In this document: one piece after another, positions 3,914-49,887 of the stretch
How positions within the stretch are numbered: the first letter of the stretch is position 1
Layout of the letters: each line of letters begins with the position of its first letter
Assembly: GCA_963795745.1 (NCBI GenBank)
Contig: CAWCIT010000008.1
Coordinates: 184,232-248,231 of the forward strand
Direction of reading: 5' to 3'
Source of the DNA: an uncultured Solirubrobacterales bacterium
Lineage (GTDB): Bacteria; Actinomycetota; Thermoleophilia; Solirubrobacterales; Solirubrobacteraceae
Length of the DNA: 64,000 bases
Notes under the pieces: generated by a model
What the model was told of the DNA's origin: nothing
The model's database searches: none
The model's input: only the letters and a program-made list of their open reading frames with translations
Position numbers and translations under genes: made by a program

Positions 3914-6268
3914 TCAGCGGGCCGAGGGCAGGATCGTCGTCGTAGGTATCGACCGGACCGGCGGAAGCGGCAGCGTGACCGTGGTCGGGACGCTGGGCCC
4001 CGCCGGCTTGGTCGGGGCCGGCGCGGGTCGCGGCGCGACCGGCGCGGGGCGCTGCGTAATCGGGGCGGCCGGCCGGCGCGTGACCGGTGCGACGACACGC
4101 GGCCGGGGCGCGACCGCCGGCGGCGCGGGCGCCGCCGGCCGGGCGCCGGCCGAGGTCGGCGCGGTGGCGGCGCGCTGCCGGGAGGCGGCGGTTGGGGTGG
4201 CGGCCGCCGCCGCCGGGCGGACGGTCCGGGTCTGGACGCGGCGGGTCGACGTGGACGGAGCCGGTCGCGGGGCGAGCGGCTTGGCGGCGGCCGGTGGGAC
4301 GGTGGCGGCCGGCGGCGCGAGCGCCGCGGGGGCCGAGCCGGCGGCGGGCGAGTTGGCGGCGGGCGACCGATCGCCGGATAGGGACACTCCGCCGACGGCG
4401 GCGGCCGTGCCGGCGCCGACGAGGGCGAGGCCGACCACGGCCGCGCCGATGCGCGCGCGGCGGCGACCCGGTCCCGCGGAGGTCGGCGGCTTCGGGGCCG
4501 ACCGCGCGGACGCCGGCGGCCGGCGGGCGGCGGCGGCTGCTTGCGCCGGCGCCGCGGCCGCGGTCCGCGGGCGCTGAGACGGCGCCTCGGGAGGGCCGGC
4601 GGCGGCCGGCGGCGCGTCGACGGCGTCGGCGCCGCGGCTTCCGTTCCGATGCGGCGCGGGAAGCGCGGCCGCACCGGCGGCGTCGGCGGGCGGCCGGCTC
4701 GAGACCGGCGTGCGACCGGAGTCGGCGGACCGCCGGGCCGGACGCGGCGGCCCGTCGCCACCCGCGGCCCGGCGGGCCGGACGCGGCGGCCCGTCGCCGC
4801 CCGCGGCCCGCCGGGCCGAACGCGGCGGCCCGTCGCCATCCGCGGCCCGGCGGGCCGAACGCGGCGGCCGGTCGGCATCGGAGGGCCGGGGGGCCGAGCG
4901 CGGCGGCTCGTCGCCGTCCGCGGCACGGCGGGCGGGACGCGGCGGCCGGTCGGCGGACGGCGGCGCCAGGCCTTCCACAGCGGCGGCGGCGACCGCGCGG
5001 GCGGGCGGCGGCGCTCCGCCGTCCAGAGCCGCGGCGGGGACCGGGTTGGCCGGCGACAACGCTCCGGCGTCCACGGCCGCGGCGGCGACCGGGTTGGCGG
5101 GCGACGCCGCGCCGCCGTCCAGAGCCGCGGCGGCGACCGGGTCAAAAGCAGAACGGCGTGGCCCGGCGGGCGGGACGGGCCGGTCAGGGGCGGGGCCGAC
5201 GGTCGGTGCCGGGGCGGCGCCGGCCGCAGGCGCGGCGGCGACGCGATCCGACGCCGACCGACCCGCCTCACCGACCGGGGCCGGGCGAGCAATGGACGCC
5301 GCCACCGGCCGCGGCCGGGCCTCGCCGGACACCGGGGGATCACCGGCGATGGCCGACGCCGCCACCGGCCGCGGCCGGGCCTCGCCGGACACCGGGGGAT
5401 CACCGGCGATGGCCGACGCCGTCGCGCGGGCCGGGCGTGCCTCGCCGGACGGTGCCGGGCCGGCTGCGCCGGTGGTGGCGAGCCGGCGCGTCGGGCGCGG
5501 CTCGCCGGCGACGCCCGGGCCGACGATCGGCCGGCGGGAGGCGGGCGCGGCGGTCGATGACACCTCGGCGGCCCGCGCCGGGCCGGGACTGGGACGACGC
5601 GGCGCCGACCGCGGCTGCGGCTCGGCTCCCGGACTCCGCTCGGGCTGAGAGCGCCCCTTGTCTTCCGGGCGCGCCTCGGCCCCCGAGCCCGCCTCGACCC
5701 CCGAGCCGGCCTCGGCTCTCGGGCGTGGGTCGCCCCCCGAGCCGGCCTCGGCCGCCCGGGGCGCGCCGGGGGCGAGGGAGACGCCGCGGTGGAGCTGCCA
5801 CTCGGCGGCGTCGAACCGACCCGCGAGCTCCGCGCAATCCAGACATTCGTCGAGGTGGTGGTAGAGGCGGGCGACCTGGCCGGTTCCGATCCGGCCGTCC
5901 GCTCGCGCCGCCAGCAGTCCCGGCACCGGGCGGCAGCCGCGGCGCAGCCGAGCCAAGCGGGCGAGACGGCTCGCCAGTCGCGCCTGCCGGCGCTCGACCG
6001 CCCGCAGCGCGACCTCCCGGGCCCGCCGGGCCGTGGCCTCGCCGATCGGGCCCTCGTCAACCGTGCCGATCTCGGCGATCGCCGCGGCCACGACCCGATC
6101 CGGGGCCTCCCGGCCCACGACCGCCCGCACGTAGCCGGCGAGCTCGTCCGTCGCCGCGGCGGCCCGCCGACCGACCGGCGACGATGGCCGAGCATCGTTG
6201 TCGAACGATCTCACCACTGCGTTCAGGCTAGCGCGCCGCTGACCCCCCCGGCCCCGGGCCGCCCTCAT
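3914..6268 (-). CDS. Anti-sigma-factor-like single-pass membrane protein (zf-HC2 HxxxCxxC motif) with a long Pro/Ala-rich repetitive linker and ectodomain
   Basis: This frame of ORF 3914..6538 contains YHHLDECLDC (H-x3-C-x2-C), several in-frame tandem repeat families, one clear TM helix (IGAAVVGLALVGAGTAAAVGGV), and a Pro/Ala-rich C-terminal part. I chose ATG 6268 as the start because it forms an ATGA overlap with the stop of the upstream small membrane ORF. The first 90 codons of the tracked ORF look like a shadow frame. The competing ORFs 3778..6195(-) and 4087..6231(+) are Arg-rich shadows. Confidence 0.55.
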   Translation of the reverse strand: MRAARGRGGQRRASLNAVVRSFDNDARPSSPVGRRAAAATDELAGYVRAVVGREAPDRVVAAAIAEIGTVDEGPIGEATARRAREVALRAVERRQARLASRLARLARLRRGCRPVPGLLAARADGRIGTGQVARLYHHLDECLDCAELAGRFDAAEWQLHRGVSLAPGAPRAAEAGSGGDPRPRAEAGSGVEAGSGAEARPEDKGRSQPERSPGAEPQPRSAPRRPSPGPARAAEVSSTAAPASRRPIVGPGVAGEPRPTRRLATTGAAGPAPSGEARPARATASAIAGDPPVSGEARPRPVAASAIAGDPPVSGEARPRPVAASIARPAPVGEAGRSASDRVAAAPAAGAAPAPTVGPAPDRPVPPAGPRRSAFDPVAAAALDGGAASPANPVAAAAVDAGALSPANPVPAAALDGGAPPPARAVAAAAVEGLAPPSADRPPRPARRAADGDEPPRSAPRPSDADRPPRSARRAADGDGPPRSARRAAGGDGPPRPARRAAGGDGPPRPARRSADSGRTPVSSRPPADAAGAAALPAPHRNGSRGADAVDAPPAAAGPPEAPSQRPRTAAAAPAQAAAAARRPPASARSAPKPPTSAGPGRRRARIGAAVVGLALVGAGTAAAVGGVSLSGDRSPAANSPAAGSAPAALAPPAATVPPAAAKPLAPRPAPSTSTRRVQTRTVRPAAAAATPTAASRQRAATAPTSAGARPAAPAPPAVAPRPRVVAPVTRRPAAPITQRPAPVAPRPAPAPTKPAGPSVPTTVTLPLPPVRSIPTTTILPSAR
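4715..4950 (-). repeat. In-frame 39-bp tandem repeats (about 6 units; 13-aa unit RRAA[GD]GDGPPR[PS]A) inside the anti-sigma-like gene
   Basis: gacgcggcggcccgtcgcc recurs at 4741 and 4780, with a variant at 4819, giving a 39-nt period. The protein shows six consecutive 13-aa units. Confidence 0.85.
5295..5414 (-). repeat. Perfect 60-bp tandem duplication (2 full copies plus a partial third) inside the anti-sigma-like gene
   Basis: 5295..5354 and 5355..5414 read identically (gacgccgccaccggccgcggccgggcctcgccggacaccgggggatcaccggcgatggcc). They encode SAIAGDPPVSGEARPRPVAA twice. Confidence 0.9.
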
Positions 6269-14413: not shown

Positions 14414-15601
14414 ATGGCCATCGCCGAGCAGAGCCTCAAGCCCGACTTCACGGCGCCCCGGCGGCACTTCGTCTTCACCGACGAGCACGACCAGCTGCGC
14501 GAGTCGATCCGTCGCTTCGTGACCCGCGAGCTGCGGCCCCACGCCGAGGAGTGGGAGGAGACGACCTTCCCCGACTGGGTCTTTCGCCGCATGGGCGAGC
14601 TCGGCTTCCTCGGCCTGTCGATGCCCGAGGCCTACGGCGGCCAGGGCGGCGACTACTACTGCAACCTCGTCCTCGCCGAGGAGATGGCCGGGGCCGACTC
14701 GGCCGGCACGGCGATGGGCGTGGCCGTGCACACCGACATGGCGATGCCGCCGCTCGAGCGCTTCGCCACCGAGACCCAGAAGCAGGAATGGCTCGTCCCG
14801 GCCATCCGCGGCGAGAAGATCCTCTGCCTGGGCATCACCGAGCCCGACGCCGGCTCCGACGTCGCCGCGATCAAGACGCGCGCCGTGGCCGACGCCGGCG
14901 ACTACGTCATCAACGGCTCGAAGACCTACATCACCAACGGCCACCGGGCCGACGTGATCATCCTCGTGACCAAGACCGACCCCGCCGCCGGCCACGGCGG
15001 CCTGACGCTGTTCCTCGTGCCGCTCGACGCCCCCGGCGTGACCCGCGAGAAGCGGCTGGTCAAGCTCGGCATGCACGCCTCCGACACGGCGCTCCTGAGC
15101 TTCCAGGACGTCCGCGTCCCCGCGAGCGCCGTCCTCGGCGAGGTCGGTCGCGGCTTCCAGGAGATCATGTGGGAGCTCCAGGGCGAGCGGCTGATCTCGG
15201 CCGCCGGCTGCGTCGCCGCCGCCGAGCGCTGCTTCGAGCGCACGCTCGCCTTCGCCAAGGAGCGCCAGGCGTTCGGTCGGGAGATCGGCCACCACCAGGC
15301 CATCCGCCACCGGTTCGCCGAGATGGCGACCAAGATCGAGACGGCCCGTCAGGTCGTCTACACGACGGCCTGGCGCTTCGAGCGCGGCGACTATCCGGTC
15401 CGGGAGATCTCGATCGCCAAGCTCCACGCCGCCCGGACGGCGGTGGAGGTGGCGGACGACTGCATCCAGATCCACGGCGGTGCCGGCTACATGCGCGAGT
15501 ACGGGATCGAGCGCGTCTGGCGCGACCTGCGCCTGCACCGGATCGGCGCCGGGACCGACGAGATCATGCTCGAGGTCATCGGCCGCAGCTATGGCCTCTA
15601 G
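14414..15601 (+). CDS. Acyl-CoA dehydrogenase
   Basis: A 395-aa product with GITEPDAGSD, YITNG and a C-terminal QIHGGAGYMREYGIERVWRD...IGAGTDEI: canonical ACAD motifs. Confidence 0.95.
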   Translation: MAIAEQSLKPDFTAPRRHFVFTDEHDQLRESIRRFVTRELRPHAEEWEETTFPDWVFRRMGELGFLGLSMPEAYGGQGGDYYCNLVLAEEMAGADSAGTAMGVAVHTDMAMPPLERFATETQKQEWLVPAIRGEKILCLGITEPDAGSDVAAIKTRAVADAGDYVINGSKTYITNGHRADVIILVTKTDPAAGHGGLTLFLVPLDAPGVTREKRLVKLGMHASDTALLSFQDVRVPASAVLGEVGRGFQEIMWELQGERLISAAGCVAAAERCFERTLAFAKERQAFGREIGHHQAIRHRFAEMATKIETARQVVYTTAWRFERGDYPVREISIAKLHAARTAVEVADDCIQIHGGAGYMREYGIERVWRDLRLHRIGAGTDEIMLEVIGRSYGL

Positions 15602-15632
15602 ACGGGGCGCCAATCGACGCAAGGGAGACCGA

Positions 15633-16460
15633 ATGGGAGTTCTCGACGACAAGGTGGCCATCGTCACCGGCTCCGCCCGCGGCATCGGCCTCGCCACCGC
15701 GGAGCTCCTGGCCGAGCACGGAGCCAAGGTCCTGGTCAACGACCTCGACGGCGACGCCGCCCGCGCGGCGGCCGACCAGATCGACGGCGACACGGCGGTC
15801 TTCGCCGGTGACCTCACCCGGCCCGGCGTTCCCGACGACCTCGTGGCCGCGACGATCGACGCCTTTGGCCGGATCGACATCATCGTCAACAACGCCGGCT
15901 ACACCCTCGACAAGCCGATCCACACGATGAGCGACGACTGGTTCCAGCGGATGCTCGACATCCACGTCGTCGCGCCGTTCCGCGTGATCCGCGCCGCCGC
16001 CCCCCACCTGCGCGAGCCGGCGAAGGTCGAGCGGGCCGAGGGGCGGGAGGTGTTCCGCAAGATCGTCAACGTCTCATCGGTCTCCGGCACGATGGGCAAC
16101 GCCGGACAGGCCAACTATGCGGCCGGCAAGTCCGCAGTCGTCGGACTGACCAAGACCCTGGCCAAGGAGTGGGGCCAGTTCAAGATCAACGTCAACGCCG
16201 TCGCCTTCGGCTACATCGAGACCCGGCTGACCGCCGCCAAGGACGAGTCGAACACGATGGAGATCGACGGCCAGCAGGTGCAGCTCGGGATCCCCGACCA
16301 GCTGCGCGGCATGGTCTCGATGCTGATCCCCCTCGGCCGTCCCGGCACCCCGCAGGAGGCCGCCGGCGGCGTGTTCTTCCTCTGCTCGCCCTGGTCCAAC
16401 TACGTCCACGGTCAGGTGCTCAACGTGACCGGCGGCCAGTTCACCGGGATGACGACCTGA
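15633..16460 (+). CDS. Short-chain dehydrogenase/reductase (FabG-like 3-oxoacyl reductase)
   Basis: VAIVTGSARGIG (TGxxxGxG), NNAG, S...YAAGK catalytic triad. ATG 15633 is preceded by AAGGGAGA. The tracked ORF from 15480 overlaps the ACAD 3' end. Confidence 0.9.
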   Translation: MGVLDDKVAIVTGSARGIGLATAELLAEHGAKVLVNDLDGDAARAAADQIDGDTAVFAGDLTRPGVPDDLVAATIDAFGRIDIIVNNAGYTLDKPIHTMSDDWFQRMLDIHVVAPFRVIRAAAPHLREPAKVERAEGREVFRKIVNVSSVSGTMGNAGQANYAAGKSAVVGLTKTLAKEWGQFKINVNAVAFGYIETRLTAAKDESNTMEIDGQQVQLGIPDQLRGMVSMLIPLGRPGTPQEAAGGVFFLCSPWSNYVHGQVLNVTGGQFTGMTT

Positions 16461-16466
16461 CCGCGC

Positions 16467-18026
16467 TCAGGCGAGCGGCACGGCCAGGAGCGTGGCCTGC
16501 GGCGCGGCGCTGCCCTGCGGCGTCAGCTCGGTGACGTAGGCACCGGTGGGGCTCAGCGCCGTGGTCCACAGGCTGACGTGCGTCCGCGGCGCCCGCGGAG
16601 GCGGGCAGCGACTCGGCTCGCTGCCCTGGCTCGTGTGCCCCGGCTCGTGCCCCGCGTCGCGCGAGGAGACGCCGCCGATGCGCAGCAGCACGCGCGCCCC
16701 GATGGCCGTCTGCGCCGACCCGAGGACCAAGCGCTGGTCGCAGTAGGTCGCCCGCTCGTAGAGGAGCCGGTTGCCGAGCAGCGCCGGGTTCAGGAGCTGA
16801 CTCACACCCGACTGGCGCAGCACCTGCCGCCGACCGCTCTGCAGGTCGATCTCGACGATCCGGCTCCCCCGGGGCCCGTTGATCGCGACCACCACCCGGC
16901 TGCCGTCGAGCCCGGGCCGGCCGAGGTCGACCGCCGACGGCTCGGCCGCGACCACGGTCATCGGCGCCAGGGCCGGCAACGGGAAGGCGAACAGCACCTG
17001 GCGCGCGGTCGCGTCCGTCGCCCGGACCACGAGCCAGCCGGCCGAGACCGCGAGCTGCTCGACCGTTCCCGGGACGGTGACCCGGCCGATCGTCGCGCCG
17101 GTGCCGGTGCCGGCGGCGGCGCCGGCGCCGGCGCCGGCGGTGATCACCGTCACCTGCGAGCCGGCGAGAAGCGCCAGGTTCCCGCCGCCGAGCGCCGGGT
17201 CGGCTCCGCTCAGGGCCCGCGGCGGCGCCCCCGACGCGTCGAGCGCCATTCCGGCGCCGCTGGCCGGCGCCTCCCAGGCGAGCAGGTCGCCGCTCACCGT
17301 CGGATCGGTCGCCCCGACGGCCACCGGCGTCACCGCCGCCACGGCGCTCCCCGCCGCGGGCCCGATGGCCAGCGCCGCGGCGCACAGCAGCAGCAGCGCG
17401 CCGTCGAGGCGACGCAGCCACGCCAGCACCACCGGCCGCTCGGCCATCAGCTCGGCGTAGCGGACCGCCCGCACGCCGTCGATCCACGGCGCGAGCGCGA
17501 CCACCGGCAGCGCCCGCCCGGCGCCGAAGGCCACGCCGATCGCGAGGCCGGCGCCCGGGTCGCCGAGCGCCACGCACAGGCCGGCCAGAACCCACACGGC
17601 CATGGTCAGGACGAAGGTCGTGAAGCCCAGCCCCAGCAGCACGCCGTAGAGGCCGCCGGCCACCGGGAGCGGCATCACCCGCCGCCAGTGCTCCGGCACC
17701 TGGCGGCGCACCTGGGGCACGACCCGCACCCCCCGAGCCTCGCCGACCGCCGCCGCCGCGGCGACCGCCACCGCCGCTGCCGTCGCCGCCGGCCGCGCGT
17801 CCCCGCCCCCCAGCGCCCGGCCGAGCAGGGACAGGACGGTGAAGGTCGCCGCGCCCCCGGCCACCGCGCCGGCGGCAAACGTGACGCACGCGGCGAACGT
17901 CGTGCGCCGTCCCCCGGTGTGGCCGGTCGGACCGAGCGTGCTCAGCATCGAGAACCCGCACGGCGACCAGGTGCCGGTCACGCCGGCGGCGAACGCGGTG
18001 GTGGCCAGGATGACGGTGACTAGCAC
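16467..18026 (-). CDS. DsbD_2/CcdA-type (MauF-like) polytopic membrane protein fused to an extracytoplasmic beta-propeller-like domain
   Basis: The N-terminal half has multiple TM helices with a WSPCGF motif in the first helix, as in CcdA/DsbD_2-type thiol-disulfide transporters. The C-terminal ~250 aa has a recurring strand motif (VSGDLLAW, SAGWLVVR, DGSRVVVA, GNRLLYE), as in TolB-like propellers. GTG 18026 overlaps the upstream TAG by 7 nt. The first 50 codons of the tracked ORF are a run-on into the upstream gene. Confidence 0.6.
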   Translation of the reverse strand: MLVTVILATTAFAAGVTGTWSPCGFSMLSTLGPTGHTGGRRTTFAACVTFAAGAVAGGAATFTVLSLLGRALGGGDARPAATAAAVAVAAAAAVGEARGVRVVPQVRRQVPEHWRRVMPLPVAGGLYGVLLGLGFTTFVLTMAVWVLAGLCVALGDPGAGLAIGVAFGAGRALPVVALAPWIDGVRAVRYAELMAERPVVLAWLRRLDGALLLLCAAALAIGPAAGSAVAAVTPVAVGATDPTVSGDLLAWEAPASGAGMALDASGAPPRALSGADPALGGGNLALLAGSQVTVITAGAGAGAAAGTGTGATIGRVTVPGTVEQLAVSAGWLVVRATDATARQVLFAFPLPALAPMTVVAAEPSAVDLGRPGLDGSRVVVAINGPRGSRIVEIDLQSGRRQVLRQSGVSQLLNPALLGNRLLYERATYCDQRLVLGSAQTAIGARVLLRIGGVSSRDAGHEPGHTSQGSEPSRCPPPRAPRTHVSLWTTALSPTGAYVTELTPQGSAAPQATLLAVPLA

Positions 18027-18589
18027 TTGATGCCCGTGTCGTAGTAGTAGGTGCAGAAGACCGCCCGGCCGGCGTAGCAGTAGCCGGTCAGTGCGGCATC
18101 GCCGTTGATGCGCACGGTCGAGTACGAGCAGCAGTCGAGCAGCCGCCGTACGTTGCCGCCGCAGCACCGATACCACGAGCCGTCTACGTAGGTCTTGAAG
18201 TGGAAGCGCTCCGGGATCGCGTCCAGGCAGACCCGGCTGCGCGGCGCCGGCGGCAGCGGCCGGCCGACCGGGTCGACCAGGACCTGTCCGCCCGCGTCGA
18301 CCGCGTGGCCGGCGGCGTTGACCGGCCGGCCGAGGTCGTCGACCGGATGGCCGTCGCGCGCCCGCAGCGGCCGGCCGCGGGCGTCGACCCGGGGCAGCCC
18401 CGTCGGGTGCGGGCAGCTGGCCGTCGTGTAGATGTGGCCACAGAAGTGGAAGGCCTCGGCCGCCGGCGGCCGGGCGAGCCGGCTGCCGCCGGCGGCGGCG
18501 ACGACAGCCGCCCCGACCCGCGCGATGAAGCCCCGCCGCGACGTCGTCCGCGCGACGGCCAGGCCGAGCCCGGGGTCAGCCTTCGGCAT
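18020..18589 (-). CDS. Tat-exported Cys-rich protein, methylamine-dehydrogenase-light-chain (MauA)-like
   Basis: Twin-arginine signal TSRRGFIARVGAAVVAAAGG. The mature part has 10 Cys in MauA-like spacing (FCGH..SCPHP; SWYRCCGG....LDCC; GYCYAG..VFCTYYYD..KC). Compare MADH-L ...AYRDCCG...CPC...IWCFG...YHCT, quoted from memory. A Gly/Arg/Pro/Asp-rich insert with repeated D..GRP[VL] motifs separates the Cys clusters. Confidence 0.6.
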   Translation of the reverse strand: MPKADPGLGLAVARTTSRRGFIARVGAAVVAAAGGSRLARPPAAEAFHFCGHIYTTASCPHPTGLPRVDARGRPLRARDGHPVDDLGRPVNAAGHAVDAGGQVLVDPVGRPLPPAPRSRVCLDAIPERFHFKTYVDGSWYRCCGGNVRRLLDCCSYSTVRINGDAALTGYCYAGRAVFCTYYYDTGIKC

Positions 18590-19466
18590 GGCTCAGCGCC
18601 GCTCGTCGCTCGGCGGTGGCCAGCATGCCCTCGAGTTGGCCCCCGCTGTTGAACGCCCCCTTGGCCAGGACGGTGCCGGCCCGGTCGAGGACCAGCGCGT
18701 ACGGGCTTCCCGGAACTTCGAGCGCCCGCCAGACGTCGTCGTCGGCGTGCTCGTCGAAGCTCAGCATCGACACGAACGGGTCGCGCCCCAGCCAGTCGAG
18801 GGCCGGCTCCAGCGCCCGGCAGAGGGGGCAGCCAGCGGAGGAGAAGACGGCCAGCGCGAGCTTGACGTCGCCGTCGAGGGCGAAGCGTCCGATCAGCGGG
18901 ACCCGGCGACCGAGCGGCGGCCCCTCGTCGGCCAGCTCGAGCGCCAGCTGCGGTCCGAGACGCAGGCGCAGCTCGCCGATCTCCCGGGCGAGCGCGACGG
19001 TGACCACGCCGACGGCGGCCACACCGACCAGGGCGAGGACCAGGCCGGCGGCCAGCCACCCCACGGTCGAGACCGGGGCCCGCGTCACCGACGGCAGCCC
19101 GGCGTACGCGGCCGCCAGGGCGAGATCGCGGGCCACCGCCCGGCGGCTGACCGTCGCCCGCGCGCCGAAGCACGCGCACGGCGCGCCCGTCCCCCCGCGG
19201 CCGATGACCACGGCCAGCGCGAGCCCGAAGGCCGCCATCGCCGCGGCGGCGGCGTAGGCGCCCGCGCGGCTGCCGGCGGCCACGCCCGCGGCCAGCCCCA
19301 GCTCGGCGGCGACGAGCGCCGCCAGCGCCGCCGCCTGCGCGCGCCGCGGCCGGATCCCGAACGTGGCCAGGGCGGACGCGCTGCGCCCCGGGCTGGTCAG
19401 CTTGGCGGCGGCGCTCGCCGCCAGCACGCCGGCGAGCAGCCAGGCCGCAGCCGCATGCGGGCTCAC
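18576..19466 (-). CDS. MauE/DoxX-type membrane protein fused to a thioredoxin-like (MauD/TlpA-like, CPLC) domain
   Basis: The N-terminal TM domain has the MauE hallmark GAPCACFG. The C-terminal domain has LAVFSSAGCPLCRALEP (CxxC) and a thioredoxin-fold-like end, YALVLDRAGTVLAKG. GTG 19466 was chosen because the giant upstream gene stops at 19546. The tracked start at 19628 would overlap it. Confidence 0.7.
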   Translation of the reverse strand: MSPHAAAAWLLAGVLAASAAAKLTSPGRSASALATFGIRPRRAQAAALAALVAAELGLAAGVAAGSRAGAYAAAAAMAAFGLALAVVIGRGGTGAPCACFGARATVSRRAVARDLALAAAYAGLPSVTRAPVSTVGWLAAGLVLALVGVAAVGVVTVALAREIGELRLRLGPQLALELADEGPPLGRRVPLIGRFALDGDVKLALAVFSSAGCPLCRALEPALDWLGRDPFVSMLSFDEHADDDVWRALEVPGSPYALVLDRAGTVLAKGAFNSGGQLEGMLATAERRAALSHAEG

Positions 19467-19545
19467 GCCCCGAGACCTCCCGCACCACCGCCGGCCATCG
19501 GCCCGAGGATAAGGCATACCCCCGGCTTCGCCGGCGGCGATCGGC

Positions 19546-22500
19546 TCAGGGAGCCTTGGCCAGGTAGCTGCGCCCCGCCCGCAGCACGATCTGGCGCCGG
19601 GTGCGGAGGTTGGTGACCGCGACCACACCGCGCTGCACGGCCGTCAGCGTCCCGTCGCAGCGATCCGTCGTCGTCCACATCGTCCCGCGCACCGTCGCCG
19701 CGCTGTAGCGCCCGCGGGTGCGGAACTTCCCCTTGACGTTCGCCCGCAGCAGGGCCAGGACCGTCTTGGGCAGCGCCTTGGCGGCCGCCGTCTGCGCCTG
19801 GCCGACCTGGCCAACCTTGCCGACCTTGGGGACCTTGCCCGCCGCACACCTGCGCGCCGCGGTGCTCCGGAGCACGAGCCTCAGCTCGCTCAGCCCGCGC
19901 TCCTTGCGGTTCTGGAGGAGCTTGAACAGGCCGCCGCCGAAGTTGCCCGCCTGCGTCTGACCCTTGGTCGCGGTCGCCGTGGTCAGCCGGGCCACCCCGC
20001 TCGTCGTGTCGAAGATCGTGCCCACCGGCAACTGGCGCGCCTCGGTCAGCGGCACGAAGCCCACGCCCTTGGCCGCGCTGGTGTGCGCCGAGGCGACGTG
20101 GCCGGTCCCCGGGACGAGCACGTAGACGACCCCGCTGACCGTCGCCGCGTCGACCGACTTGCCGAGCACCGGCGGACCCGGCGGCGGATCGACCGCCGTC
20201 TGGAACGCGGCGTCCCCGCCGCTCGCCACGCCGAGCGCGTTGCTGGCCACGGCCTTCACGTGGTAGGCGCTGTTGGGCAGGAGCCGGGCCACCACGGCCT
20301 TGACCACGTGGTCGGCGAAGTCCGACCCGACGACCTGCTCCGGCGTCGTCGCCGCGTAGGAGACCGCCGCCGCGGTCGCCGGCGCCCCGCTGGCCACGGT
20401 GTACTCGAAGTGCATCGTCGTCGGCGCTCCGCCCGGGTTGATCACGGCCGAGAACTCGACGCTCGTGCTGTTGATGACCTTCGGCGGCCCGGTCACCACC
20501 GTCGCCGCGCGCGGTGTCCCGGTGGGACCGCTGGGACCACTCGGCCCGGCGGGACCGGGGGGACCGGGCGAGCCGCCGACGTAGGTGAACTGGTCGCCCG
20601 CGCCGGCCGGGCTCGTGCCCGACGGTGTGGTCACGGTCACGTCGACGGTGCCCGTGCCGGCCGGCGCGGTGGCCGTGATCTGGGTCGGCCCGTCGACGGT
20701 GAACTGCGCCGGCGCGGCGCCGAAACGGACGAAGCTCGCGCCGGTCAGCCCGGTCCCGGTGATCGTGACCACCGTCCCCCCGGCCGCCGGCCCCGACGTC
20801 GGGCTGATCGCGGTGACCGCCGGCGCCGGCAGCGGGGTCCCGTAGGCGTAGTGGTCGGCGGCGCCCTTCGTGCTCGTCCCGGAGGGCGTCGTCACGGTCA
20901 CGTCGACGGTTCCGGTCCCGGGGGGCGCGACCGTGGTCAGCTGGGTTCCGTCCGCGCTCACGCCGACCACGGGTGCCGGCGCCGAGCCGAAATGCACCGA
21001 GGTCGCGCCGGTGAAGCCGGTGCCGCTGATCACCACGCCGTTGCCGCCGGCCGCCGGGCCCGACGCCGGCGTGACCGCGGTCACCAGCGGTGGCCCGGTG
21101 GGGGGCGCGACGTAGGCGTAGGCGTCGGGCGCCGTGGTCGGGCTCGTCCCGGCCGGGGTCGTCACCCGGACGTCGACGGTGCCGCTGCCGGCCGGCGCGG
21201 TCGCCGTGATCTGGCTTGGGCTCGTGACCGTGAACGCGGTCGCCGGCGTTCCCCCGAAGCTGACGCCGGTCGCTCCGGCGAAGCCCGTCCCGGTGATCGT
21301 CACCGTCGTGCCCCCGGCCTGCGGCCCGGAGATCGGGCTCAGTCCGGTGACCGCCGGCGCCGGCGCGCTGACCACGACCGCCTCGGTCGGGTCCGCGCAG
21401 GCCGTGGTCGAGGTCGGGTAGTTGCCGTCGCCGCTGTAGGTCGCGACGACCCGGTAGGTGCCGGCCAGCGTCGGCGTGAAGCTGTCCGACGCCGCCGCGG
21501 TGCCGCCCCGGGTCAGTGCGTTGGTCGAGGTGAACACGGGCGCCGCGCTGCACGTGGCGTCGGCCGGCCCGAAGACCGCGAACGTCACCGTGCCCGTCGG
21601 TGCCGCCGCGCCCGCCGGCGCCGGCCCGAGCGTGGCGGCATCGTTGAACGACGCGCCGAGCGCGATCGCCTCCGGCCCGGCGTCGGTGGTCAGCGCGAGC
21701 GCCGTCGCCCGGCCGACCGCGGCCGCCTCGGCCGGATCGGCGCACGCCGATGTCGAGGGGGTGTAGTCGGCGTCGCCGGCGTAGCTCGCAATCACCCGGT
21801 AGGTCCCGGCGCTCGACGGCGTGAAGCGGCCCGAGGTCGCCGAGTTCCCGTCGGCGCCGAGCGGGTTGATCGACGTGAACACCGGCGTGGCCGCGCACGT
21901 CGGATCGCCCGGGCCGTAGACCTGGAAGGTCACGCTCCCGCTCGGCGCCGCCGCCCCGGCCGGCACCGGGCCGAGGCTGGCGGTGTCGGCGAACGAGCCG
22001 CCGAGGGCGAGCGAGGCCGGGGCCACCGCGGTCGCCAGGACCAGCGGCGCCCGACCGACGGTGACCGTCTCGCCCGGATCGCCGCACGAGGACGCGGACG
22101 GCAGGTAGTTGGCGTCGCCGCCGTAGGCGGCGACCACCCGATAGGCGCCGGTCCGCGCCGGCGTGAAGCTGCTCGACGTCGCCGACCCGCCGCTGAGCGC
22201 CGCGGTCGCCGTCAAGGCCGGCGCCGACGCGCAGGCCGGGTCGGAAGGGCCGTAGACGTTGAACGTCACCGTCCCGGTCGGCGCCGGCGCCCCGCCCGCC
22301 GGCGGTGCGACCGTGGCCGTGTCGTGGAAGGCGCCGCCCAGGGCGATCGTCGCCGGCGCGACCGCCGTGGCCACCGGCAGGCTCGCCCGGCCGACCACCT
22401 CGGCCTCGGCCGGATCCGCGCATGTCGACGCGGACGCGAGGTAGCTCGCATCGCCGGAGTAGCTCGCGATCACCCGGTAGGTCCCGGGCGCGGTCGGCGA

Positions 22501-24732
22501 GAAGTCGGAGGAGACCGCGGTCGTCCCGGAGGGGTCGACCGCATTGGTCGAGGTGAACAGCGGCGTCGCGGCGCACGTCGGGTCGGCCGGGGCGTAGACG
22601 TTGAAGGTCACGGTGCCCGTCGGCGGCCCCCCGCCCGCGGGCGGGCTGAGCGTCGCGGTGTCGTGGAACGCTCCGCCCACGGCGATCGGAGTCGGCGCGA
22701 CCTGGGTGGCGATGGCGAGCCCCGTCCGGGCGACGGTCACGCGTTCGCTCGGGTCCCCGCACGACGAGGTGGCCGAGTTGTAGTTCGCGTCGCCGCTATA
22801 GGTCGCGACCACCACGTAGGTGCCCGCCGCCGCCGCGGTGAAGGCGCCGGAGGTCACCGACGGGCTGTCGACGAGCGGGACGGTGGAGCTGAAGACCGGG
22901 GACGAGGCGCACTGGGAGTCGTTCAGGTAGACGTCGAAGGTGACCGTCCCGGTCGGTGGCGGCGCGCCCTCGAACGGCGAGCCCACGGTGGCGCGGTCCT
23001 GGAAGCTGCCGCCGACGGCGATCGCGGCCGGCGTGGCCAGCGTGGTGAGCGTCGGCTGCGCCGGATTGACCGTGACCGACTCGGCCGGGTCGCTGCACAC
23101 CGACGCCGAGGGCTGGTAGTTCGCATCGCCGCTGTAGGTCGCGATCACCTGGTAGGTCCCGGCGGCGGTCGGGAAGAAGTTCGTCGACGCCGCTGAGGTT
23201 CCCGCGGCGTTGACCGGATTGGTCGAGGTCAGGACCGGGCTCGCGGTGCATGCCGGGTCACCCGGGCCGTACACGTCGAAGGTCACCGACCCGGTCGGCG
23301 CGGCTGCCCCGGCGACGGCGGGTCCGAGCGTGGCCGTGTCCTGGAAGTTGGCGCCGAGCGTGATCGAGGCTGGCGCGACCTGCGTGGCGATGGCCAGCGG
23401 CGCCGGGCTGACCGTGACCGCCTCGGCCGGGTCGGCGCAGAGCGAGGCCGACGCCGTGTAGTTGGCGTCGCCGCTGTAGCTGGCCACCACCCGATAGGTG
23501 CCGGCGCCCGTCGGCGTGAAGTCGCTCGACGCGGCCATCGTCCCCGACGCGGTGAGCGGGTCGGTCGAGGTGAAGACGGGCGCCGCCGCGCACGACGGGT
23601 CCGCCGGGCCGTAGACGTTGAAGGTGACCGTCCCGGTCGGCGCCGGCACCCCGGCCGGGGCGGGACCGAGCGTCGCGTCGTCGTGGAAGGTGGAGCCCAG
23701 GCCGATCGTCTCCGGCGTCACGTCGGTCGTCACGGCCACCGTCGCCGGGCCGACGCTCACCGACTCCCCCGGGTCGCCGCACGTCGTCGAGGTCGGGCCG
23801 TAGTTGGCGTCGCCGCTGTAGGTGGCGATCACGTCGTAGCCGCCCTGGGTGGTCGGGGTGAACGGGTCGGAGACCGCCGTGGTCCCGGCGGCGTCGACCG
23901 GGTTGGTCGAGCTGAAGACCGAGGAGGTGTCGCAGGAGCTGCCGGTCGGATAGACGACGAACGTGACCGTCCCGGTCGGCGTCGCCGCCCCCGCCGTCGG
24001 GCTCAGGGTCGCCGTGTCCTGGAACGGCGAGCCGACGCCGATCGCCGGCGGGGCGACCTGCGTGGCGATCGGGAGGGCGCCCGGCGAGACCGTGACCTGG
24101 TTGGACGAGCTGCCGCTGCCGGTGACCTGGTCGGTCGCGGTGCCTTGGGCGAAGCCGGCCTGTTCGGTCTGGATGCCGCTCGCGTCGGGGTTCGCGTCGC
24201 CGGCCGGCATCCGGACCACGTCGACGGTGAAGTCGATCACGCACGTCGTGTTCCCGGAGCCGCTGGCCGGACCGAGGACGACGGGGGCGGACGGCGTGAA
24301 CTGAACCTTGCCCTGCAAGGCGTCGACCACCGCGATCGTGAACGTCGTCCCGGCGCAGGCCGTGCCCGCCTCACCGACGCCGGTCGCGCTGAGGCGCAGC
24401 ACCCCGGGGTCCGTCCGCCCCGGCGGGCAGTCGGCGCCGGAGGGGAAGGTGGTGCAACTCGGGACGAGGGTGATCGTGCCGAGCGTGACCGGCAGGGTGT
24501 CCTCGGGCGGGCTCGACTGGTTGGAGATCGTCAGCGTCTCGAGAACCGCGGACTGCCCGACCCTGAGGGAATTGCCACTGGGGATGCTCGGAGCGGCGCT
24601 CAACCCGACGGTGGCCCAGGCCGGGCCGGCGGCCACGCCGAGGAACGCGCCGAGAACCACCAGCGCCAGTACGACCGCGCGCCAGCGGAGAAGCCCCACC
24701 CCGTCGCCGCCCCCCTCCCGCATCGCCCGCAT
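19546..24732 (-). CDS. Giant secreted surface/adhesin-like protein (1728 aa): signal peptide, Cys-containing N-domain, 8 Ig-like (Big_3-type) repeats, 3 IPT/TIG domains, a short collagen-like GXY run, an FN3-like domain and a conserved C-terminal module
   Basis: Signal peptide: RWRAVVLALVVLGAFLGVAAGPAWA. There are eight ~113-aa repeats, each ending YSGDANY..S..C.DP.E.V.V. Three IPT/TIG units have the form SGP.AGGT.VTITGTGF.GA..V.FG...TVDVTVTTP.GTS. The collagen-like run is GPPGPAGPSGPSGPTG. GAGGGA lies 7 nt upstream of ATG 24732. Confidence 0.85.
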   Translation of the reverse strand: MRAMREGGGDGVGLLRWRAVVLALVVLGAFLGVAAGPAWATVGLSAAPSIPSGNSLRVGQSAVLETLTISNQSSPPEDTLPVTLGTITLVPSCTTFPSGADCPPGRTDPGVLRLSATGVGEAGTACAGTTFTIAVVDALQGKVQFTPSAPVVLGPASGSGNTTCVIDFTVDVVRMPAGDANPDASGIQTEQAGFAQGTATDQVTGSGSSSNQVTVSPGALPIATQVAPPAIGVGSPFQDTATLSPTAGAATPTGTVTFVVYPTGSSCDTSSVFSSTNPVDAAGTTAVSDPFTPTTQGGYDVIATYSGDANYGPTSTTCGDPGESVSVGPATVAVTTDVTPETIGLGSTFHDDATLGPAPAGVPAPTGTVTFNVYGPADPSCAAAPVFTSTDPLTASGTMAASSDFTPTGAGTYRVVASYSGDANYTASASLCADPAEAVTVSPAPLAIATQVAPASITLGANFQDTATLGPAVAGAAAPTGSVTFDVYGPGDPACTASPVLTSTNPVNAAGTSAASTNFFPTAAGTYQVIATYSGDANYQPSASVCSDPAESVTVNPAQPTLTTLATPAAIAVGGSFQDRATVGSPFEGAPPPTGTVTFDVYLNDSQCASSPVFSSTVPLVDSPSVTSGAFTAAAAGTYVVVATYSGDANYNSATSSCGDPSERVTVARTGLAIATQVAPTPIAVGGAFHDTATLSPPAGGGPPTGTVTFNVYAPADPTCAATPLFTSTNAVDPSGTTAVSSDFSPTAPGTYRVIASYSGDASYLASASTCADPAEAEVVGRASLPVATAVAPATIALGGAFHDTATVAPPAGGAPAPTGTVTFNVYGPSDPACASAPALTATAALSGGSATSSSFTPARTGAYRVVAAYGGDANYLPSASSCGDPGETVTVGRAPLVLATAVAPASLALGGSFADTASLGPVPAGAAAPSGSVTFQVYGPGDPTCAATPVFTSINPLGADGNSATSGRFTPSSAGTYRVIASYAGDADYTPSTSACADPAEAAAVGRATALALTTDAGPEAIALGASFNDAATLGPAPAGAAAPTGTVTFAVFGPADATCSAAPVFTSTNALTRGGTAAASDSFTPTLAGTYRVVATYSGDGNYPTSTTACADPTEAVVVSAPAPAVTGLSPISGPQAGGTTVTITGTGFAGATGVSFGGTPATAFTVTSPSQITATAPAGSGTVDVRVTTPAGTSPTTAPDAYAYVAPPTGPPLVTAVTPASGPAAGGNGVVISGTGFTGATSVHFGSAPAPVVGVSADGTQLTTVAPPGTGTVDVTVTTPSGTSTKGAADHYAYGTPLPAPAVTAISPTSGPAAGGTVVTITGTGLTGASFVRFGAAPAQFTVDGPTQITATAPAGTGTVDVTVTTPSGTSPAGAGDQFTYVGGSPGPPGPAGPSGPSGPTGTPRAATVVTGPPKVINSTSVEFSAVINPGGAPTTMHFEYTVASGAPATAAAVSYAATTPEQVVGSDFADHVVKAVVARLLPNSAYHVKAVASNALGVASGGDAAFQTAVDPPPGPPVLGKSVDAATVSGVVYVLVPGTGHVASAHTSAAKGVGFVPLTEARQLPVGTIFDTTSGVARLTTATATKGQTQAGNFGGGLFKLLQNRKERGLSELRLVLRSTAARRCAAGKVPKVGKVGQVGQAQTAAAKALPKTVLALLRANVKGKFRTRGRYSAATVRGTMWTTTDRCDGTLTAVQRGVVAVTNLRTRRQIVLRAGRSYLAKAP
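21367..24081 (-). repeat. Array of 8 diverged ~340-bp coding repeats (Ig-like domain repeats) within the giant protein gene
   Basis: A periodic protein motif, PTGTVTF.VYGP.DP.C....VFTSTN...GT.....F.PT..GTY.V.A.YSGDANY, recurs about every 113 aa between residues ~218 and ~1122. Confidence 0.8.
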
Positions 24733-24844
24733 GCCGCTGTCCCTCGCGCCTGTCCCGCCAGCCGATCGATCCCCAAGCCGGGCGCCGCAGAGGCGCCCTG
24801 CGCGATCATACGCCCGAGCGGAGCGACCGGCGCCGACGCCCCGA

Positions 24845-27800
24845 TCAGGCCGCCTTGGCCAGGTAGCTGCGCCCGGCCCGCAGCACGATCTGGCGCCGGG
24901 TGCGGCAGATCAGTGACCACGACCACACCGCGCTGCACGGCCGTCAGCGTGCCGTCGCAGCGATCCGTCGTCGTCCACATCGTGCCGCGCACCGTCGCCG
25001 CGCTGTAGCGCCCGCGCGTGCGGAACCTCCCCTTGACGTTCGCCCGCAGCAGGTTGAGGACCGTCTTCGGCAGCGCCTTGGCGGCCGCCGTCTGGGCGGT
25101 GGCGGCGTTGCCGGCCGGTGGACACCGTTTGGTCGCGCTGCTCTGGGCCACCAGCCGCAGCTCGCTGAGGCCGCGCTCCCGGCGGTTCTGCAGAAGTCGG
25201 AACAGACCGCCGCCGAACTCCCCGGACTGCACCCGGCTCCGGGTGGCGGTCGCCGTGGTCAGCCGCGCCACGCCCTTGCTGGCGTCGAAGATCGTCCCCA
25301 CGGGCAGCTGGCGCGCCTCGGTCAGCGGGATGAAGCCCACGCCCTTGGCCGCGCTCGCGTGGGCCGCGGCGACGTGCCCGGCGCCGGGGAGGAGCACGTA
25401 GACGACGCCGCTGACCGGGACGGCGTTGAACGTCCTCCCGAGCAGCGGGGGCGGCGGTGGGGGATCGGTCGCCGTCTTGAACGTCGCATCCGCGCCCGGG
25501 GTCACGCCCTGGGGATTGGTGGCCACCGCCCGAACGTGGTAGCTGCTGTTCGGGAGCAGGCCGGCGACCCGGGCGGTGACCACGTGGGCGGCGAAGTCGG
25601 ACCCCACCGTCTGCTCCGGCGTGCGCGCGGCGTAGGTGATCGCCGCCGCGCTCGCCCCGGCCGGCGCCACCGCCGCGTACTCGAAGTGCATCGTCGTGGG
25701 CAGGCCCTCGGGGTTGATCGTCGCGGTGAACTGGGCGCTCGAGCTGCTGAGCACCTGCGGCGGACCGACCTGCAACGTCGGCGCCTGGTGTCCCGAACTG
25801 GCCGACCCGACCGCCCCGCCCGCGGTCGCGGCACCGGTCGTCGTACCGCCGGTGGTGGGGGCGCCAGTCGTCCCGCCGCCGGTCGTCCCGCCGCCGGTCG
25901 TCCCGCCGGTCGTCGCACCGCCGGTCGTCCCGCCGCCCGCCGTGCCAGCGCCGGTCGACTGCGGCGGGACGTAGGCGTACCGGTCGGCGGCGCCGGCCGC
26001 GCTGGTCCCGGCCGCTGTCGTCACCGTCACGTCGACGGTCCCCGTCCCCGGCGGGGTGAGGGCTACGAGCCGCGTGCCGGCGGCATCGACGCTCAGGATC
26101 GTCCCGGGCCTCGAGCCGAAGCTGACCGCCTTCGCCCCGCCGAGGCCAGTGCCGAAGACGACGACGCCGTCCCCGCCCGCGGTCGAGCCCGACGCCGGCG
26201 CCAGGCTCGCGATCACCGGGCCGCCGGCGGGCGGACCGTGGGTGACCGTGGTTCCGGGCGCGACGCACGAGGGATCGTCGGCTCCGGTCCAGGTCAGCTC
26301 CACCTGGACCGACCCGGGCGCTCCGGTCTCACCGACCAGGGTGATCAGGAACTGAGGCAGGCCGTTGGCCGTCGCGAGGTTGAGCCCGGTCAGGTCGACC
26401 GCGCCCGTGCTGTCGAGCGGCCGCGAAGGCGCGTTCGGGATCGGATTGCCGTCCCCGTCCTCGAAGGCGACCGAGCCGCTGGTGTAGGTGCCGGGCGCGG
26501 GCGAGAGCACCTTCAGCGAGGTGAACTGGCTTGGCATGCACAGTGAGCTGGGCACGACGACGCCCGAGGCCAGGACGCGGATCGGCCCCTGGCCGCAGCC
26601 GCTCCCGGTGAACGCATCGAAGTTCTGGATCTGACCCGAGCCGCCGTCGGCGTTGACCCAGATGCACGTCGGGCGCTGCGGATCCGGGTTGACCGTGTAG
26701 AGGAAGCTCAGGTTGCTGAGGCTCTTGGGGAAGTTGGCGCACGCCGCGGAGGTGCTGTAGTCGTAGCAGAGGACATGGTCGGTGTTGCCGTCGGGGACGT
26801 AGACGCGGGGGCCCAGCACGAAGGCCGGGCCGTTCCAGCCGTCGGTCGGGGTGATCACGGTGGCCAGTCCGGCCGGGGCGGCGACCGGCGCGCCGGCCAG
26901 GCTGAAGCAGGGGGTGTTGGGGCTGGGCAGGCAGAGCCCGGTGACGGTGCCGGAGGCGCTCAGGAGCGGGAAGGGCGCCCCGTAGTTGGAGGCGTAGGAG
27001 AAGTCGAGCTTGACCGGCCAGGAGCCCGAGCAGTTGCCGCCGGCGGTGGCGTCGTAGCAGGCCAGCTCTTCGGTGCCGCCGACGGTGACCGGGACGATCA
27101 CCTGGCCGGCGATCGCCGCCGTGGCCGGCGCGGGGAAGGTCTGATTCGTGAGGGTCCCGCTCCCGACCGAGACCGCGTACGGCTGCCCGGCGCAGGCGGC
27201 AAAGGTCGTCAGGTCGAAGCAGAGCAGCTTGTTCTCGGCGCCGGTGACGGGGGCGCCGTCGACGTAGTTGAAGGCGTACCAGCGCGTGCCCACCACCACG
27301 GGATCGCTTATCCCACTCGTTCCTGGCGACGCCTCGCCGGCCCCGGTGAGCGCGGTGAACCCGCAGAACGGCTTGGGCGGAGTCGCCGCCGCCTGCGCCG
27401 TGTCGATGCAGACGACACCGGCTGTCTGGTCGTTGGTCCGGGTGGCGAACACGTACAGGTGCCCGCTGGCCTGGTCGAGCCAGAGCCCGGGTTGGCTCGA
27501 GGTGGCGAAGTCGTTGCCGTTCGCGTCGGTGACGGTCTCCGGCGCCCAGCACGGCGAGGCGTCGGTCTGGAGATGGCAGGCGACCTGAAGCGTGCCGGCG
27601 TGGTGGAAGACGTTGTAGACGGCGGTCGGCGTCATCGCGACCGCCCATCCGTCACCGCCGCCGCTGCCGGCGAAGGTCGACGCCGGGGGCACGGGGATGG
27701 TCACCGTGGCCGTGTAGGTCGCCTGCGGCGCGCCCGCCGCCCACGCCGTCTCGACGGACCCGACCGATCCGACGCCGAGCGCCGCCGCGACCGACGCCAT

Positions 27801-27869
27801 CAACAGCCGGAGGCGTCGGCGCCGCCTGCGAATCGGTTGTGAACTTCCTCTCTCCACGAAGGCCCCCAC
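24845..27869 (-). CDS. Large secreted protein: signal peptide, 7-fold Cys-pair repeat (propeller-like) domain, IPT/TIG, Gly/Thr linker, FN3-like domain and the same C-terminal module as 19546..24732. It has an apparent 1-nt frameshift near the 3' end
   Basis: The tracked ORF 24600..27869 matches its paralog up to ...TAVQRGVVVVTDL, then diverges. Alignment to 19546..19625 shows one extra base near 24905. Reading past it in the other frame restores RTRRQIVLRAGRSYLAKAA and a stop at 24845-24847. Signal peptide: RRRRRRLRLLMASVAAALGVGSVGSVETAWA. The start could be GTG 27869 or the GTG 4 codons downstream, which is preceded by AAGGTGGGGG. Confidence 0.75.
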
Positions 27870-49774: not shown

Positions 49775-49801
49775 CGTCCGCCGGCATCGTCCCCGGCGGC
49801 G

Positions 49802-49840
49802 GTAACCGGGGCGGGTCGCCCGTGTGAACGCTGGATGAAC
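49802..49840. promoter_or_regulatory. Phased GTAAC / TGAAC / TGAAC direct repeats in the nas-glnA divergent promoter region (candidate GlnR-type site)
   Basis: GTAAC is at 49802, TGAAC at 49825 and TGAAC at 49836. The last two are separated by exactly 6 nt (an 11-bp period). Confidence 0.3.
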
Positions 49841-49887
49841 GGCCTGGGCCGGCGCCGGCCTCGCCGCGGCGGGATACTGGCCGGGCG

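Follow-up and report, generated by a model that had tools for sequence, protein, structure and literature searches.

A MauE-MauD fusion, a conserved exported Cys-rich protein and a MauF-propeller fusion form a three-gene module of Thermoleophilia that is not a methylamine dehydrogenase

We describe a module of three overlapping genes, here called genes A, B and C, on the minus strand of a 64,000-nucleotide (nt) stretch of DNA, referred to below as the window, from the Solirubrobacterales assembly GCA_963795745.1 (contig CAWCIT010000008.1, 184,232-248,231 of the forward strand). The module brings homologues of MauE, MauD and MauF, three proteins of the methylamine dehydrogenase (MADH) gene cluster, together with a small exported Cys-rich protein and a membrane-anchored beta-propeller; it is not a MADH and cannot carry the tryptophan tryptophylquinone (TTQ) cofactor. 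The reading that we favor, as probable on balance though only just, is that the trio represents a relative of the mauF-B-E-D-A core, compact and with fused parts, that lacks TTQ chemistry and would oxidize a novel small subunit and dock it on the membrane-anchored propeller. The anatomy of the trio, in window coordinates, is as follows.

18576..19466, minus strand: gene A, 296 amino acids from the GTG at 19466, a MauE-MauD fusion
19101..19454, minus strand: MauE domain of gene A, four helices, matching PF07291
19398-19409, minus strand: AAKL, with the conserved Lys (K22) of the MauE domain, aligned with the Lys of genuine MauE
19296-19310, minus strand: AAELG, with the conserved Glu (E56) of the MauE domain, aligned with the Glu of genuine MauE
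19164..19181, minus strand: P-C-A-C-F-G, the CXC active-site motif with F-G (residues 96-101, within GAPCACFG)
18579..19046, minus strand: MauD-like part of gene A, with an anchor helix (18990-19064) and a thioredoxin fold with CPLC (18819-18830)
18576..18589, minus strand: 14-nt overlap of the gene A stop with the gene B start
18020..18589, minus strand: gene B, 189 amino acids, a twin-arginine translocation (Tat)-exported 10-Cys protein of a new family
18452..18589, minus strand: twin-arginine leader of gene B (residues 1-46), with TSRRGF and an A-x-A cleavage site (A-E-A, cut before F)
18023..18451, minus strand: mature part of gene B (residues 47-189, 143 amino acids)
18020..18026, minus strand: 7-nt overlap (GTGCTAG) of the gene C start with the gene B stop
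16467..18026, minus strand: gene C, 519 amino acids, a MauF-type membrane domain followed by a beta-propeller
17343..18026, minus strand: MauF-type six-helix domain of gene C (residues 1-228)
17949-17969, minus strand: WSPCGFS motif of the MauF-type domain
17679-17717, minus strand: PQVRRQVPEHWRR motif of the MauF-type domain
17613-17651, minus strand: LYGVLLGLGFTTF motif of the MauF-type domain
17505-17528, minus strand: FGAGRALP motif of the MauF-type domain
16470..17342, minus strand: extracytoplasmic six-bladed beta-propeller of gene C (residues 229-519)

The coding evidence for this arrangement is direct. The window has a G+C content of about 74%, and between 16467 and 19400 the G+C content at the third codon position (0.84 to 0.98) tracks three successive minus-strand frames that agree with the open reading frames (ORFs) 16467..18026, 18020..18589 and 18576..19466. 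The GTG start of gene A has a GGAGG 9 nt upstream; an alternative ATG at 19517 would lengthen the product to 313 amino acids. Gene B stops at a TAG (18022-18020), gene C starts at the GTG at 18026, and a database protein (P0121) is identical to the entire product of gene C. The three overlapping frames are exactly those of a preliminary description made from the DNA alone, and the trio is a self-contained, translationally coupled three-gene module.

The membrane domain of gene C is homologous to MauF. Comparison of the gene C family with three genuine MauF sequences from independent mau clusters gave an hhalign probability of 99.0% (E, 4.8e-18; 204 columns), and comparison with a single MauF gave 98.4% (E, 9.7e-15). 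The similarity extends over the full length of MauF, and the two groups have in common the motifs TWSPCG(Y/F)S, PQ.R.QV, LYG..LGL and GR.LP. MauF itself is a separate protein of about 280 amino acids encoded beside mauB and mauA, whereas gene C is fused to a propeller, and no mauB or mauA was found in 82 loci. In the AlphaFold2 model of gene C, built from 113 homologues with a mean predicted local distance difference test (pLDDT) score of 90.4, there are six membrane helices, of which helix 1 is broken at W-S-P-C-G and helix 4 at G-F-T-T-F; C23 is the sole invariant Cys of the domain. Gene C has no match in Pfam or NCBIfam, neither of which has a model for MauF.

The domain, in which the WSPCGF motif is present, had earlier been called both MauF-like and CcdA/DsbD_2-type, and of these labels we retain only the former. 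Gene C had no match to the CcdA/DsbD models PF02683 and PF13386 at an E value of 1 or below, genuine MauF had no CcdA/DsbD_2 match in Pfam at 0.1 or below, and DsbD_TM was limited to 3 of the 24 gene C family members, at nonsignificant E values of at least 1.1. In common with the DsbD, CcdA and ScsB relays, gene C has a six-helix part whose two ends are both predicted to be on the outer side of the membrane, a Pro-Cys where helix 1 breaks and a periplasmic domain at its C terminus. Unlike those proteins, it has no Pfam match, gave no internal repeat when helices 1 to 3 were compared with helices 4 to 6, has a single conserved Cys with GFTTF at the helix 4 position, and carries as its outer domain a propeller rather than a thioredoxin fold.

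That outer domain lies outside the membrane according to the positive-inside rule, and the earlier suggestion that it is propeller-like is supported by the same high-confidence model, in which about 23 strands are arranged in approximately six blades. The top Foldseek matches (E, ~1e-7 to 1e-6) were TolB, YncE, the designed six-blade protein Pizza6 and the propellers of acylaminoacyl-peptidases; a profile search of the PDB with gene C gave only a weak TolB match (E, 0.4), and Pfam gave no match of the propeller to the MADH heavy-chain family PF06433. A co-varying pair of Cys residues, C429 and C474, is present in the alignment of the propeller. TolB/PD40 propellers are the best structural matches of this ectodomain, and one gene C orthologue (L001:10570-13659; 1029 amino acids) has several PD40 repeats; TolB differs, however, in being a soluble protein with an N-terminal alpha/beta domain that binds Pal and has no link to MauF-type domains. 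The size of the ectodomain differs between clades, whereas that of the MauF-type domain is constant.

Gene A combines the other two accessory proteins in one chain. Its N-terminal half matched Pfam MauE (PF07291) with an E value of 1.8e-15 and 57.8 bits (gathering cut-off, 27) and was 32% identical in BLASTP (E, 3e-7) to the MauE of a genuine Methylobacterium mau cluster (L083; mauFBEDACJGLMN), which was our reference for direct comparisons of Mau proteins. The active site of MauE has been defined experimentally as a CXC motif, usually followed by F-G, and its conserved Lys and Glu have been proposed to bind quinone (bioRxiv 10.64898/2026.03.05.709764). Gene A has all of these features, with the CXC-F-G in the loop between helices 3 and 4, the Lys in helix 1 and the Glu in helix 2, and its CXC aligns with that of genuine MauE. 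Residues 151-299 align end to end with residues 2-179 of genuine MauD (27% identity; E, 9e-12), an alignment that takes in the N-terminal membrane anchor of MauD and places CPLC opposite CPVC. The only thioredoxin-fold match of gene A in NCBIfam was MauD (TIGR02661), although its score (29.7 bits) falls below the equivalog cut-off of 188.6 bits, compared with 372.9 bits for genuine MauD. The two domains and motifs recognized in the preliminary description, GAPCACFG and CPLC, are thus both substantiated by these models.

MauE can substitute for DsbB in Escherichia coli, thioredoxin-fold fusions make up 8.2% of MauE proteins, and MauA is present in just 10% of MauE-bearing species (bioRxiv 10.64898/2026.03.05.709764). 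Taken with the P-C-A-C-F-G of gene A, this biochemistry leads us to predict that gene A is a one-chain DsbB/DsbA-like oxidase of the MauE/MauD type, its thioredoxin-fold fusion being analogous to the VKOR-Trx fusions. Since MauE is a general, DsbB-like and quinone-linked generator of disulfides, and its fusions to thioredoxin folds are frequent, MauE alone is not evidence of a mau-type system; the argument for such a system rests on the MauF link. The same preprint describes a generalist MauE and makes no mention of MauF, whereas here the MauE-MauD protein is tied to a single client and to a protein that joins MauF to a propeller.

That client, gene B, has two parts with different affinities. 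The leader scored 21.9 bits with the Tat signal model TIGR01409 (cut-off, 16.7) and resembled the leader of the MADH small subunit in hhalign (95.5%; E, 1.3e-8; 32 columns). A hidden Markov model of the MauA leader alone gave 25.8 bits for gene B of the window and 18 to 29 bits for gene B leaders, compared with 8.7 bits for the best of 1125 ORFs that are not gene B, and much of this shared signal is the Tat consensus. In having a long MauA-type Tat leader and a place directly after mauE-mauD, gene B is like a MADH light chain. The mature part is not: aligned with 24 MADH light-chain members, among them a Paracoccus MauA sequence verified against PDB entries, it gave an hhalign probability of 3% or less whether the whole mature part was compared in local, global or low-mact mode or its C-terminal half was used, and the matches obtained were of only 8 to 13 residues around the CC motifs. 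Whether the single sequence or a profile of 20 sequences was used, Pfam, NCBIfam and the PDB likewise gave nothing beyond the Tat signal; there was no Pfam match at an E value of 1 or below, PF02975 included, and TIGR02659 reached only 0.25, in the leader, with nothing in the mature part.

The preliminary description held that gene B is a Tat-exported 10-Cys protein whose Cys spacing recalls the MADH light chain. The export signal and the Cys count stand, and the likeness to the light chain holds for the leader but not for the mature domain, where the supposed Cys spacing has no statistical support. Absence of significant similarity to the MADH light-chain family had been named there as the outcome that would overturn the proposal, and for mature gene B this is the outcome that we obtained. 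A MADH light chain has two Trp residues that form TTQ and 12 Cys in six disulfides, whereas gene B has one conserved Trp and 10 Cys; because only a single Trp (W139) is conserved, TTQ is excluded in gene B. Judged by its sequence, mature gene B represents a new protein family and is not a MADH subunit.

Within this family, conservation is extreme. Among 123 homologues all 10 Cys are invariant, 52 of the 143 mature positions are conserved in at least 98% of sequences, and the median identity is 72%; the near-invariant residues include, besides W139, three Tyr, two His, six Asp and eight Arg. The alignments contain the motifs FCGH..TT..CPHP, DGSWYRCCGG, DCC, RINGD and GYCY and a C-terminal Cys. 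Conservation of this degree points to a role as an enzyme or redox subunit more than to a passive structural one. Residues 64-116 (18242-18400) consist of about six short D-x-x-G-x-P-V/L units, and through this stretch the family profile found 12 to 17 matches in giant proteins of eukaryote type with short beta-hairpin repeats (Bflower, Lipoprotein_15 or DUF3659). More than 2252 homologues were found, every one named hypothetical, and clustering leaves more than 2000 groups at 90% identity and only 315 at 50%; many of the 50%-identity representatives are frame-shifted translations of this high-GC locus. One database entry (P0242), in which MauE, the thioredoxin domain and gene B are read as a single ORF of 453 amino acids, was considered as a natural fusion and rejected as a probable 1-nt assembly error, because the resulting topology would be inconsistent. 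It is likely that this entry and the frame-shifted representatives are assembly or gene-calling artefacts at the overlapping junctions and not real fusions.

The trio is a constant feature of its hosts. Relatives of gene B are present in 438 species-representative genomes; 80 of these loci were listed and examined, and all 80 belong to Solirubrobacterales, Gaiellales, other Thermoleophilia or unclassified actinobacterial metagenome-assembled genomes. In these 80 loci and one further locus (L001), the MauD-like part of gene A is followed on one strand by gene B and gene C, always as neighbors and in that order (81 of 81); in 9 of the 81, tblastn did not pick up the MauE half. The flanks consist of variable housekeeping genes, for example nadA/nadC, ftsEX, prfB and tkt, with no fourth conserved gene. 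A scan of metagenomes with a two-motif DNA pattern for MauF yielded 120 loci, of which 89 were of the trio type, with gene B in 65 of the 67 that could be tested, gene A in 46 of 46, and none with MauA, MauB, MauG or MauC. The remaining 31 were canonical clusters, with MauB in 28 of 28 testable loci, MauA in 18 of 18, and gene B in none. Within this 120-locus sample, MauF-type domains occur in two contexts only, the canonical mauFBEDA cluster and the trio. The gene-neighbourhood check proposed in the preliminary description thus bears out the trio; its arrangement is far beyond chance, and it is characteristic of the class Thermoleophilia.

Searches by tblastn with eleven Methylobacterium Mau proteins place the trio outside the canonical clusters. 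Across the window and the 81 loci (1.36 Mb), no match was found to MauB, MauA, MauG, MauJ, MauL, MauM or MauN, and matches to MauF, MauE and MauD always fell inside the trio; MauC (amicyanin) gave a single marginal match (L029; E, 0.006). No ORF in the 64-kb window contains a CxxCH haem motif. The trio had been described as lacking the heavy chain, MauG and amicyanin, and this holds for the first two throughout and for amicyanin apart from that one match. The broader proposal, an orphan mau-like accessory set with two fusions and a distinct Cys-rich exported protein that is not MADH, is upheld by direct comparison with genuine MauE, MauD and MauF.

The canonical order is F-B-E-D-A, with MauB being a propeller encoded beside mauF, and the trio reads (E·D)-(small Tat Cys-rich protein)-(F·propeller). 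Like mauFBEDA in Methylobacterium and Paracoccus (mauFBEDACJGLMN), the trio has MauE, MauD and MauF homologues, a small Tat-exported Cys-rich protein with a MauA-like leader after E-D, and a beta-propeller after F. Unlike it, E and D are fused, as are F and the propeller; the small protein belongs to another family, with 10 Cys instead of 12, a single conserved Trp and no match to PF02975; the propeller has six blades, is like TolB and does not belong to PF06433; MauG, amicyanin, MauJ, MauL, MauM and MauN are missing; and the hosts are Thermoleophilia rather than methylotrophic Proteobacteria. Counterparts of all five parts of the core are therefore present, E, D and F by homology and the small subunit and propeller by position and kind only. 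The propeller of gene C stands in the position of MauB, a point given too little weight in the preliminary description, and "without a heavy chain" may therefore apply only as far as homology goes. In one mau cluster (L085:1721-2587) a c-type cytochrome gene, not mauF, lies upstream of mauB; MauF is therefore not universal even in canonical clusters.

Under the reading that we favor, the Tat system would export the gene B precursor, which would be cleaved after A-x-A. The MauE-to-MauD relay of gene A would then oxidize the ten Cys of gene B to five disulfides and would probably also make the C429-C474 bond of the propeller. The MauF domain would act as a platform, taking up the small protein at the membrane and transferring it to the propeller of its own chain, giving a membrane-anchored complex of a propeller and a small Cys-rich subunit, by the same logic as MauF, MauB, MauE, MauD and MauA. 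We infer the relay step from the established biochemistry of MauE and MauD, and the docking step from the fusion and the gene order alone.

Several observations weigh against this reading. Besides the lack of similarity between mature gene B and the MADH light chain, the propeller has no sequence similarity to MauB (hhalign, 0.08%) and has six blades, not seven. The propeller is only 25 to 40% identical between clades, compared with 60 to 70% for gene B, and the MauF domain is also the more conserved part of gene C; a tight, obligate subunit interface would lead one to expect otherwise. The AlphaFold2 model of gene B, made from 20 sequences of a family too uniform for a good model, is poor (pLDDT, 50), and Foldseek found no match to it at an E value of 0.001 or below. 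MauE is now regarded as a generalist, so that gene A could serve many clients. The metagenome DNA pattern was derived from the two known groups, and a third context of MauF could be missed by it. Finally, we know of no biochemical role that has been established for MauF in any system.

The generalist nature of MauE leads to a different explanation, namely, that gene A is the DsbB-plus-DsbA equivalent of Thermoleophilia for all exported proteins and that genes B and C are ordinary clients or syntenic neighbors. The rarity of MauA among MauE-bearing species (bioRxiv 10.64898/2026.03.05.709764) is in keeping with such a housekeeping role, as are the location of the module among nadA/nadC, ftsEX, prfB and tkt and its position, in the window and the closest relatives, directly downstream of giant Cys-containing immunoglobulin (Ig)-like proteins. 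However, general oxidative folding does not account for the invariant gene order, with overlapping frames at every locus examined, for the leader of gene B being like that of MauA, or for the restriction of MauF-type domains in the 120-locus sample to the company of MauE, MauD, a propeller and a small Tat-exported Cys-rich protein, never alone; we therefore consider it unlikely. A secreted Cys-rich product, RiPP-like (a RiPP being a peptide synthesized on the ribosome and modified after translation) or toxin-like, can also be envisioned, by analogy with three candidate families in Streptomyces that have mauE, in one case also mauD, and no other mau genes, and in which each precursor has at least 8 Cys (Kloosterman et al. 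2020, PMC7794033). Those clusters, like the trio, have orphan mauE/mauD beside a small Cys-rich gene in nonmethylotrophic Actinomycetota, but they are strain-specific natural-product candidates, whereas the trio has a 189-amino-acid Tat protein conserved throughout a class and a MauF-propeller partner. RiPP cores are variable, while mature gene B has 143 residues and its high median identity is class-wide; its Tat leader includes a signal-peptidase site, the trio is single copy and lies among housekeeping genes, and no tailoring enzymes or exporters are nearby, all of which makes this explanation very improbable.

A further possibility is that the trio encodes a cryptic amine-dehydrogenase-like enzyme, in which gene B is a light chain diverged beyond recognition that carries another protein-derived cofactor, formed for example by W139, Y140 and a neighboring Cys or as a Cys-Tyr or metal site with H52 and H61, and in which the propeller of gene C is a membrane-tethered equivalent of the heavy chain. 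The five-part correspondence with MauF, MauB, MauE, MauD and MauA and the MauA-like leader would fit such an enzyme; so would YRCCG and DCC of gene B, which echo the invariant YRDCCG of MauA, and the 52 near-invariant mature residues, a number typical of an active site and interfaces. The mature domain nevertheless lacks significant similarity to the light chain, its single conserved Trp makes TTQ impossible, the propeller is TolB-like with six blades, and no MauG, flavoprotein or radical S-adenosylmethionine maturase, cupredoxin or cytochrome is linked to the trio. We regard this explanation as distinctly doubtful. The same low standing applies to its boldest form, according to which gene B would supply the small subunit and gene C the large one of a novel membrane-anchored extracytoplasmic enzyme that shares ancestry and an assembly pathway with MADH and uses a different, possibly self-generated, protein-derived or metal cofactor. 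In that form, the MauF-propeller fusion would also disclose what MauF does, as the dock in the membrane where a propeller subunit takes up its oxidized small subunit.

Because MauF is fused to a propeller here, and mauF adjoins the propeller gene mauB in canonical clusters, this "Rosetta-stone" fusion provides the testable hypothesis that MauF docks the propeller subunit at the membrane while the small subunit is loaded. MauE, MauD and MauF travel together outside methylamine metabolism, apparently as a transferable set of three maturation factors for small subunits that are exported by Tat and rich in disulfides; this refines the recent picture of MauE as nothing but a generalist. The component families, and orphan MauE/MauD genes beside Cys-rich genes, were already known; relative to the literature searched, in which searches on MauF returned nothing relevant, the MauF link, the pair of fusions and the class-wide, unannotated client family are new. 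Gene B represents a large family without a domain model and ranks with the most strongly conserved proteins exported in this abundant but poorly studied soil class, and its function is likely to matter to the physiology of Thermoleophilia.

On the downstream side of the trio, a convergent short-chain dehydrogenase gene (15480..16460, plus strand) ends 6 nt from the end of gene C, and this gap (16460-16467) is too small for separate terminators of the two genes. Upstream, on the same strand, are two giant Ig-like (Big_3_5/TIG) surface proteins. The product of 19546-24732 (minus strand) has 1728 amino acids with 8 Big_3_5 and 3 TIG domains, and its stop-to-stop ORF holds 25 Cys; that of 24600-27869 (minus strand) has 1089 amino acids with TIG, and its stop-to-stop ORF holds 21 Cys. 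The listed ORFs of the two overlap by 133 nt, and the start of the 1728-amino-acid gene is probably farther downstream. These proteins were considered as members of the module and rejected, their synteny being confined to the closest clade (L002, L004, L006, L008 and L010).

Elsewhere in the window, the G+C content of positions 4000-5800 rises to 84.5%. Imperfect tandem repeats are numerous there, and their periods (36, 39, 48 and 60 nt) are all divisible by three; the segment probably encodes a low-complexity stretch rich in Pro, Ala and Gly. At 46241-50350 (minus strand), a fusion of 1369 amino acids joins a molybdopterin oxidoreductase, a pyridine-nucleotide disulphide oxidoreductase and a BFD-like 2Fe-2S domain, and looks like an assimilatory nitrate/nitrite reductase-type fusion.

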